64,000 nucleotides of DNA, taken from NCBI RefSeq assembly GCF_003334785.1, contig NZ_QOWV01000001.1; one strand, 5' to 3'. Of this stretch, positions 60,133 through 60,158 are shown piece after piece (the stretch's first letter is position 1; every line of letters begins with the position of its first letter). This stretch comes from Escherichia coli. GTDB lineage: Bacteria > Pseudomonadota > Gammaproteobacteria > Enterobacterales > Enterobacteriaceae. Below the pieces are notes generated by a model, which saw only the letters and a list, made by a program, of their open reading frames with translations, ran no database searches and had not been told where the DNA came from. Position numbers and translations under genes: made by a program.

Positions 60133-60158
<26 letters not shown>

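Follow-up and report, generated by a model that had tools for sequence, protein, structure and literature searches.

A 26-bp convergent coding overlap between ycjG and mpaA in Escherichia coli: a probably passive, dual-coding junction with probable Rho-dependent termination in the opposite gene

The ycjG and mpaA genes of Escherichia coli converge tail to tail and share exactly 26 bp of coding sequence, as established by the listing of open reading frames and by direct translation of the window, the 64,000-nucleotide stretch of E. coli DNA analyzed here. The best reading of this arrangement, to which we assign a probability of about 0.8, is that of a passive, dual-coding junction at which Rho ends transcription within the opposite gene. 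The pair would thus represent an ordinary, ancient tail-to-tail junction of two real genes for murein-tripeptide catabolism, and we infer that the overlap itself is close to selective neutrality and serves no regulatory purpose of its own.

Results

Two genuine genes share their 3' ends

The window derives from a K-12-like E. coli strain and, within 52038-61439, a window position equals the corresponding MG1655 (NC_000913.3) position minus 1329737. The identical 26-bp overlap is annotated by RefSeq in MG1655, where ycjG maps to 1388930..1389895 and mpaA to 1389870..1390598, and in two further E. coli genomes. The convergent overlap that an earlier note on this sequence had described between the two genes is hence borne out by the open reading frames, their translation and the reference annotation. 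The C-terminus of YcjG reads ...FTTGELHL and that of MpaA reads ...LLRWHPKDAIRPS, each followed immediately by its stop codon (Table 1). YcjG matches the PDB structure 1jpd over its full length, and MpaA matches both 5hxd and the Vibrio MpaA structure 4axv. These matches to solved structures, together with the presence of orthologues in 79 species and codon patterns characteristic of purifying selection, indicate that both frames correspond to genuine genes.

Table 1. Features of the ycjG-mpaA junction in window coordinates (plus-strand numbering).
Feature	Coordinates	Strand	Evidence or remarks
ycjG coding sequence, L-Ala-D/L-Glu epimerase, 321 aa	59193..60158	+	ORF, translation, RefSeq, PDB 1jpd (full length)
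mpaA coding sequence, murein tripeptide amidase, 242 aa	60133..60861	-	ORF, translation, RefSeq, PDB 5hxd (residues 1-237), Vibrio MpaA 4axv
Convergent coding overlap	60133..60158	both	Phase (123:132); part of YcjG F314-L321 plus stop; part of MpaA P235-S242 plus stop
ycjG stop codon TAG	60156..60158	+	Shares 2 nt with the MpaA Pro235 codon
mpaA stop codon TGA	60133..60135	-	Lies antisense to the conserved Phe-Thr codons of YcjG (TTCAC)
MpaA tail codons K236-S242 (KDAIRPS)	60136..60156	-	Non-conserved extension, apparently a passenger
C-rich, G-poor tract	60450..60650	+ (antisense to mpaA)	GC skew -0.10 to -0.22; surrounds the Rho peak
Two perfect RNase III-cut, p19-captured duplexes	60658-60678, 60712-60733		Inside mpaA; 500-575 nt past the ycjG stop; PMC7373196 Table S3

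The earlier note had allowed that the mpaA stop might be misassigned and actually lie upstream of 60158, but the mpaA frame contains no stop before 60133-60135. An annotation artefact, whereby one of the two stops would be misassigned and the proteins would not truly overlap, might be suggested by the deposited MpaA crystal chain 5hxd, which covers residues 1-237 only. However, codon 238 of mpaA is GCA, the first in-frame stop being that listed in Table 1, and an MpaA protein stopping at residue 237 would overlap ycjG regardless. Furthermore, the YcjG chain in 1jpd extends through ...GELHL, and relatives with other overlap lengths present the same protein ends. The probability of such an artefact is therefore negligible, and an annotation error behind the overlap is essentially excluded.

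Abutting conserved cores make some overlap unavoidable

The last conserved codon of MpaA, Pro235 (60157-60159), and the last sense codon of YcjG, Leu321 (60153-60155), lie about 1 nt apart, with the conserved cores of the two proteins (MpaA ...LLRWHP and YcjG ...GxLHL) abutting. With the cores only about 1 nt apart, neither gene can reach a stop codon before entering its partner, which makes some overlap unavoidable. [quoted passage not shown]

In the genera presenting a 10-bp overlap, the junction reads CCT CAG AGA TGA on the mpaA strand, with the ycjG TGA read as TCA (TCAnnnnTGA) and the two frames in phase (123:213). The junction alignment reveals that the 26-bp state of Escherichia, Citrobacter and Salmonella has one base fewer beside the ycjG stop than the 10-bp state. 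This 1-nt indel puts mpaA in phase (123:132), so that seven extra codons (KDAIRPS) precede its TGA or TAA. Reading on in this frame, mpaA ends at a TGA or TAA that arises opposite the conserved Phe-Thr codons of YcjG; in the same alignment, Citrobacter and Salmonella carry TAA at the position of the E. coli mpaA stop TGA. In three genomes of the Citrobacter youngae type, a change from CTAAAG to CTTGAG removes the ycjG stop and at once creates an mpaA stop, which again results in an overlap of 26 bp, but differently placed.

The shared bases evolve as ycjG codons

Variable sites over total sites were counted at each codon position among 23 sequences of the 26-bp class. In the flank belonging to mpaA only, the mpaA frame yields 4/20, 3/19 and 18/20 for positions 1, 2 and 3, and in the flank belonging to ycjG only the ycjG frame yields 5/20, 4/19 and 19/20. 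The overlap, which comprises 26 sites only, yields 3/8, 2/9 and 6/9 when read in the ycjG frame, and 3/8, 6/9 and 2/9 when read in the mpaA frame. The periodicity within the overlap is hence ycjG-like, which indicates that the shared bases evolve as ycjG codons and that the MpaA tail varies freely. The junction alignment of relatives shows tails such as KDAIRPS, KDALRPS, KDGVARS and KDRVDPS, among others, and the tail is missing or different in the genera with a 10-bp overlap (...WQPQR followed by the stop). Vibrio MpaA lacks an equivalent of this tail, and the 5hxd chain does not include residues A238-S242. On the basis of these sequence comparisons, the last seven residues of MpaA look like an unconstrained passenger tail.

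The convergent arrangement is conserved, with variable overlap length

A search of complete E. coli genomes found the 100-bp junction in 5415 of 5426, with at least 99% identity in 5364 of them, whereas the surrounding 2.1 kb reached at least 99% identity in only 1626 of 5423 E. coli records (30% versus 99% for the junction). Beyond E. coli, a scan using one genome per species yielded 80 Enterobacteriaceae loci, of which 79 were evaluable, with stop codons in relatives located by scanning from the start of the tblastn alignment. The two genes are convergent in all 79 evaluable species and overlap in 74 of them. The overlap spans 10 bp in 44 species (Enterobacter, Klebsiella, Kluyvera, Kosakonia, Leclercia and others), 26 bp in 25 species (with Escherichia, Citrobacter and Salmonella as examples), 4 bp in three species, and 33 bp and 47 bp in one species each.

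The remaining five species (loci L053, L056, L057, L061 and L062) show no overlap and present a spacer of 88-331 bp, containing a REP-like palindrome in L053 and an open reading frame for a small membrane protein in the others. In L056, L057 and L061 this open reading frame is accompanied by a classic bidirectional terminator, AAAAAACCCGC...GCGGGTTTTTTT, composed of an A-tract, a GC hairpin and a T-tract. The spacer open reading frame is co-directional with ycjG and encodes a hydrophobic protein of about 40 residues (MIEWEDESVATQDELMKRMIDTVAAVVLVLIVV...; L056:3727-4038, L057:3730-4013, L061:3727-4029 and L062:3727-4057).

Overlaps were also detected beyond the main scan, with 26 bp in Pantoea, 19 bp in Cronobacter and 21 bp in one Erwinia. 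The gene order mppA-mpaA-ycjG-tpx-tyrR is maintained around the junction in these three genera, and their YcjG proteins carry an extension beyond the conserved end that enters the 3' end of mpaA. At locus L088 (CM001983.1; L088:2501-3807), from a more distant relative whose MpaA is 67% identical, a co-directional tpx lies 74 bp beyond mpaA, without ycjG. Hence, either the Enterobacteriaceae/Erwiniaceae lineage acquired ycjG between mpaA and tpx, or the lineage of L088 lost it. On the contigs examined, several of them short, still more distant MpaA homologues of 45-52% identity had no ycjG beside them.

Convergent coding overlaps are uncommon but not rare

Two of the ten convergent junctions in the annotated window present overlapping coding sequences, ycjG/mpaA and ymiD/pdeR. 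The latter pair, formed by the small protein gene ymiD (+) and pdeR (-) at approximately 15020-15038, has 19 bp in common in the MG1655 annotation and has likewise been catalogued as an excludon (PMC12288877). A survey of overlapping genes counted 58 convergent overlaps in E. coli and credited stop-codon change with their origin, with phase (123:132) being the most common among convergent overlaps of at least 5 nt (49%; Lillo & Krakauer 2007, PMC2174442). This is also the phase of the ycjG/mpaA overlap. The eight codons needed to reach the next stop are unremarkable, as about 32% of random read-throughs would end within eight codons at 3/64 per codon. A coding overlap at a convergent junction is hence uncommon, but not rare.

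The E. coli pair resembles the surveyed pairs (PMC2174442) in its opposite strands, common 3' ends, short overlap and phase, and in their mode of origin, in which a stop codon disappears or moves and the frame continues to the following stop. There is no essential difference between them; the additional detail provided by ycjG/mpaA is its cause, a 1-nt indel, and the see-saw in which of the two proteins bears the tail.

No intrinsic terminator is detected at the junction

The earlier note had also argued that the overlap leaves no room for terminators between ycjG and mpaA, and this proved correct, with zero intergenic DNA between the two genes. No intrinsic terminator was identified after either stop, with a scan of 58400-61300 (2.9 kb) returning 3 sites against 3.4 expected, and no hairpin followed by a U-tract was detected in the 231 nt folded downstream of each stop. 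The downstream fold on the minus strand presents a z of -3.1, but its shape is not terminator-like. Folding and the junction alignment of relatives revealed no conserved hairpin at the junction, and no Rfam family was matched there, the sole match being a sub-threshold AdoCbl-II located far away.

Two other elements were considered and rejected. The 5-bp palindrome located at the ycjG stop (GCATC-TTTAG-GATGC), evaluated as a cis element or terminator, lacks a U-tract, is accounted for by the coding sequence and is not preserved in Citrobacter or Salmonella. The 10-nt inverted repeat at 60159-60168 and 60201-60210, evaluated as a hidden cis element, is explained by coding sequence and is not conserved either.

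Bidirectional intrinsic terminators are the usual solution at convergent junctions, and they are present at this same junction in L056, L057 and L061; the E. coli junction differs from this solution in that neither stop is followed by a hairpin and U-tract. In published Term-seq data, ycjG has no assigned 3' end (Adams et al. 2021, PMC7815308). The same study reports a Rho termination region on the plus strand at MG1655 position 1390286, which corresponds to window position 60549, lies 391 nt past the ycjG stop and is antisense to mpaA (PMC7815308). Reads upstream and downstream of this region amount to 47 and 14 in the absence of bicyclomycin and to 58 and 68 in its presence (Rho score 3.9, p 7e-5; PMC7815308, Supplementary file 2), although this bicyclomycin evidence is coarse, being based on 800-nt windows (PMC7815308). 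A C-rich, G-poor tract surrounds the Rho peak (Table 1). In the proposed mechanism, neither the ycjG nor the mpaA mRNA would have a dedicated intrinsic terminator, and the ycjG transcript would extend several hundred nucleotides antisense into mpaA, where Rho would stop it.

On the minus strand, a Term-seq 3' end is located at 60822, 39 nt inside the mpaA open reading frame (PMC7815308). It is preceded by a hairpin at 60827-60842 (GCGCCG-AACG-CGGCGC) followed by AUUUC, with an unexceptional fold (z = -0.9). This 3' end could correspond to premature termination early in mpaA or to RNA processing there.

Published data point to overlapping transcripts and double-stranded RNA

Strand-specific evidence of transcript overlap is provided by the data of Huang et al. 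2020 (PMC7373196). Sense and antisense levels for ycjG are 51.2 and 10.0 RPM in the wild type, 39.0 and 7.0 in rnc-14, and 33.5 and 6.6 in rnc-38, and those for mpaA are 73.9 and 17.6, 41.6 and 8.8, and 21.6 and 12.8, respectively, the rnc comparison being based on single-sample RPM data. Wild-type values for the neighboring genes are 160.8 and 4.7 RPM for mppA, and 660.6 and 22.7 RPM for tpx. In these data, antisense RNA reaches about 20% or more of sense RNA on both ycjG and mpaA, with much lower fractions on mppA and tpx. Double-stranded RNA captured by p19 amounts to 25-54 RPM for ycjG and to 55-112 RPM for mpaA (PMC7373196), with the latter near the top 13.5% of genes. In addition, two duplexes reported in Table S3 of that study were located by sequence in the window (Table 1). 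These observations are consistent with a mechanism in which mpaA transcription would likewise enter ycjG in antisense orientation, and in which part of the overlapping RNA would pair as double-stranded RNA and be cut by RNase III. The minus-strand antisense RNA over ycjG would then correspond to mpaA read-through.

The set of 165 convergent excludons detected in at least 50% of 58 MG1655 RNA-seq samples contains ycjG-mpaA (ExcludonFinder 2025, PMC12288877), in a catalogue that also includes tpx-ycjG as a divergent excludon and mpaA-ycjG-tpx as a "noncontiguous operon". Overlap of convergent transcripts is frequent in E. coli, where 276 of 370 convergent operons (75%) have overlapping 3' ends, with a mean of 286 nt (Conway et al. 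2014, PMC4161252). The ycjG/mpaA pair resembles these operons in that its 3' transcript ends overlap by hundreds of nucleotides, but it differs from them in the absence of intergenic DNA and in a plus-strand termination that appears to be Rho-dependent and to take place inside the partner gene.

The genes tyrR (+), tpx (-), ycjG (+) and mpaA (-) alternate strands, with 58524-59192 comprising the end of tyrR, tpx and the tpx-ycjG spacer. A published double-stranded RNA cluster, S-116, spans the entire tpx coding sequence, and a tyrR-ycjG read-through transcript has been proposed. A very abundant Term-seq 3' end maps to 58569, at the tpx stop codon and 45 nt from the convergent tyrR stop (PMC7815308).

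Strain differences near the locus

Compared with MG1655, the window presents 17 SNPs and 3 indels overall, including a SNP in pgrR at 62907. A 25-bp tandem duplication (TTAAGGCTGCGCAAAGTAGCGTAAC) at 61440-61464 lies inside ycjY (61196..62153), which heads the ycjY-ymjD-ymjC-mpaA unit, and frameshifts it into open reading frames 61196..61564 and 61440..62153. This duplication may alter translation upstream of mpaA in this strain, or may be an assembly error. In ycjS, a 1-nt deletion at approximately 47399 yields open reading frames 47095..47415 and 47394..48149. In ycjV, an extra G at 52037 results in an open frame of 387 codons, the MG1655 copy being a frameshifted pseudogene (ycjV/ymjB). Between mpaA and ycjY (60862-61195, with ymjC at 60943..61125), K-12-like strains are missing about 665 bp that are present in other E. 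coli (ST131, O157 and others). This segment encodes an intact SDR-family oxidoreductase, of which ymjC and ymjD are remnants.

Discussion

The earlier note had proposed that convergent transcription across these two genes could give rise to antisense interference. The transcript overlap underlying this proposal is supported by the Rho termination region, the antisense reads, the RNA duplexes and the excludon listing, but interference is not, and the available data lean against a strong effect. A modest regulatory effect of the overlap is possible.

One form of interference would be a functional convergent excludon, in which the lack of terminators would have been selected and ycjG and mpaA would attenuate each other via polymerase collision, RNase III cleavage or both, thereby tuning the ratio of two enzymes that act consecutively in murein-tripeptide breakdown. 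The pair shares with Listeria-type excludons the adjacent genes on opposite strands and the overlapping transcripts, and it is named as such in PMC12288877; furthermore, both genes carry antisense RNA, RNase III-cut duplexes are found in mpaA, and the arrangement is conserved from Escherichia to Pantoea. Nevertheless, a listing in the catalogue is near-automatic for expressed genes with overlapping coding sequences, and 75% of convergent operons overlap anyway (PMC4161252). The sense RNA of both ycjG and mpaA drops, rather than rises, in rnc-14 and rnc-38. Expression is also low (tens of RPM; 47 reads per 800 nt), and collisions should therefore be rare. Both genes belong to the PgrR regulon (PMC5934670), with PgrR annotated as a repressor in MG1655, and a common regulator predicts co-expression, not mutual exclusion. 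A common regulon and a single pathway are hence the opposite of the antagonistic expression that defines an excludon. Moreover, the two genes are separated by spacers in five species, three of which include a bidirectional intrinsic terminator. We thus regard a functional excludon as unlikely.

A different type of architecture has been suggested by the entry "mpaA-ycjG-tpx", one of three such entries for E. coli in PMC12288877, with no discussion of this triplet found in that paper outside its table. Under interleaved noncontiguous operons, mpaA and tpx on the minus strand would be co-transcribed across ycjG, and tyrR and ycjG on the plus strand across tpx, with the absent junction terminator being part of a designed read-through architecture. 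The S-116 double-stranded RNA over the whole tpx coding sequence, with its proposed tyrR-ycjG read-through, and the direct succession of mpaA and co-directional tpx in L088 are in agreement with this scheme. However, tpx transcripts exceed mpaA transcripts about 9-fold (660.6 versus 73.9 RPM) and tpx is immediately preceded by a promoter-like site, from which it follows that mpaA read-through can contribute little to tpx. In addition, the ycjG antisense RNA is untranslated and C-rich, and should constitute a typical Rho substrate. These considerations make interleaved operons very improbable.

The near-zero spacing itself might have been selected, with the forced 3' overlap coupling or capping two consecutive catabolic enzymes, perhaps within an interleaved antisense architecture involving tyrR, tpx, ycjG and mpaA, a proposal that we deem rather improbable. 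Persistence of the arrangement across two Enterobacterales families and the near-invariant junction of E. coli could reflect selection for the arrangement, and not only dual coding and cores that are hard to separate. We favor the passive dual-coding reading, in which Rho would stop transcription within the opposite gene.

The overlap is already present in the reference annotation and the transcript overlap has already been catalogued, and the evolutionary dissection presented here is added detail, not a new kind of thing. Its significance extends little beyond housekeeping. The locus provides a worked example of how a convergent overlap originates and drifts, from abutting cores and a 1-nt indel to a passenger tail that varies most at second codon positions. 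It also entails a caution for strain engineering, since a clean deletion of the 3' end of ycjG takes out the MpaA stop codon, and vice versa. In addition, each of the two genes carries the 3' untranslated region of its partner.
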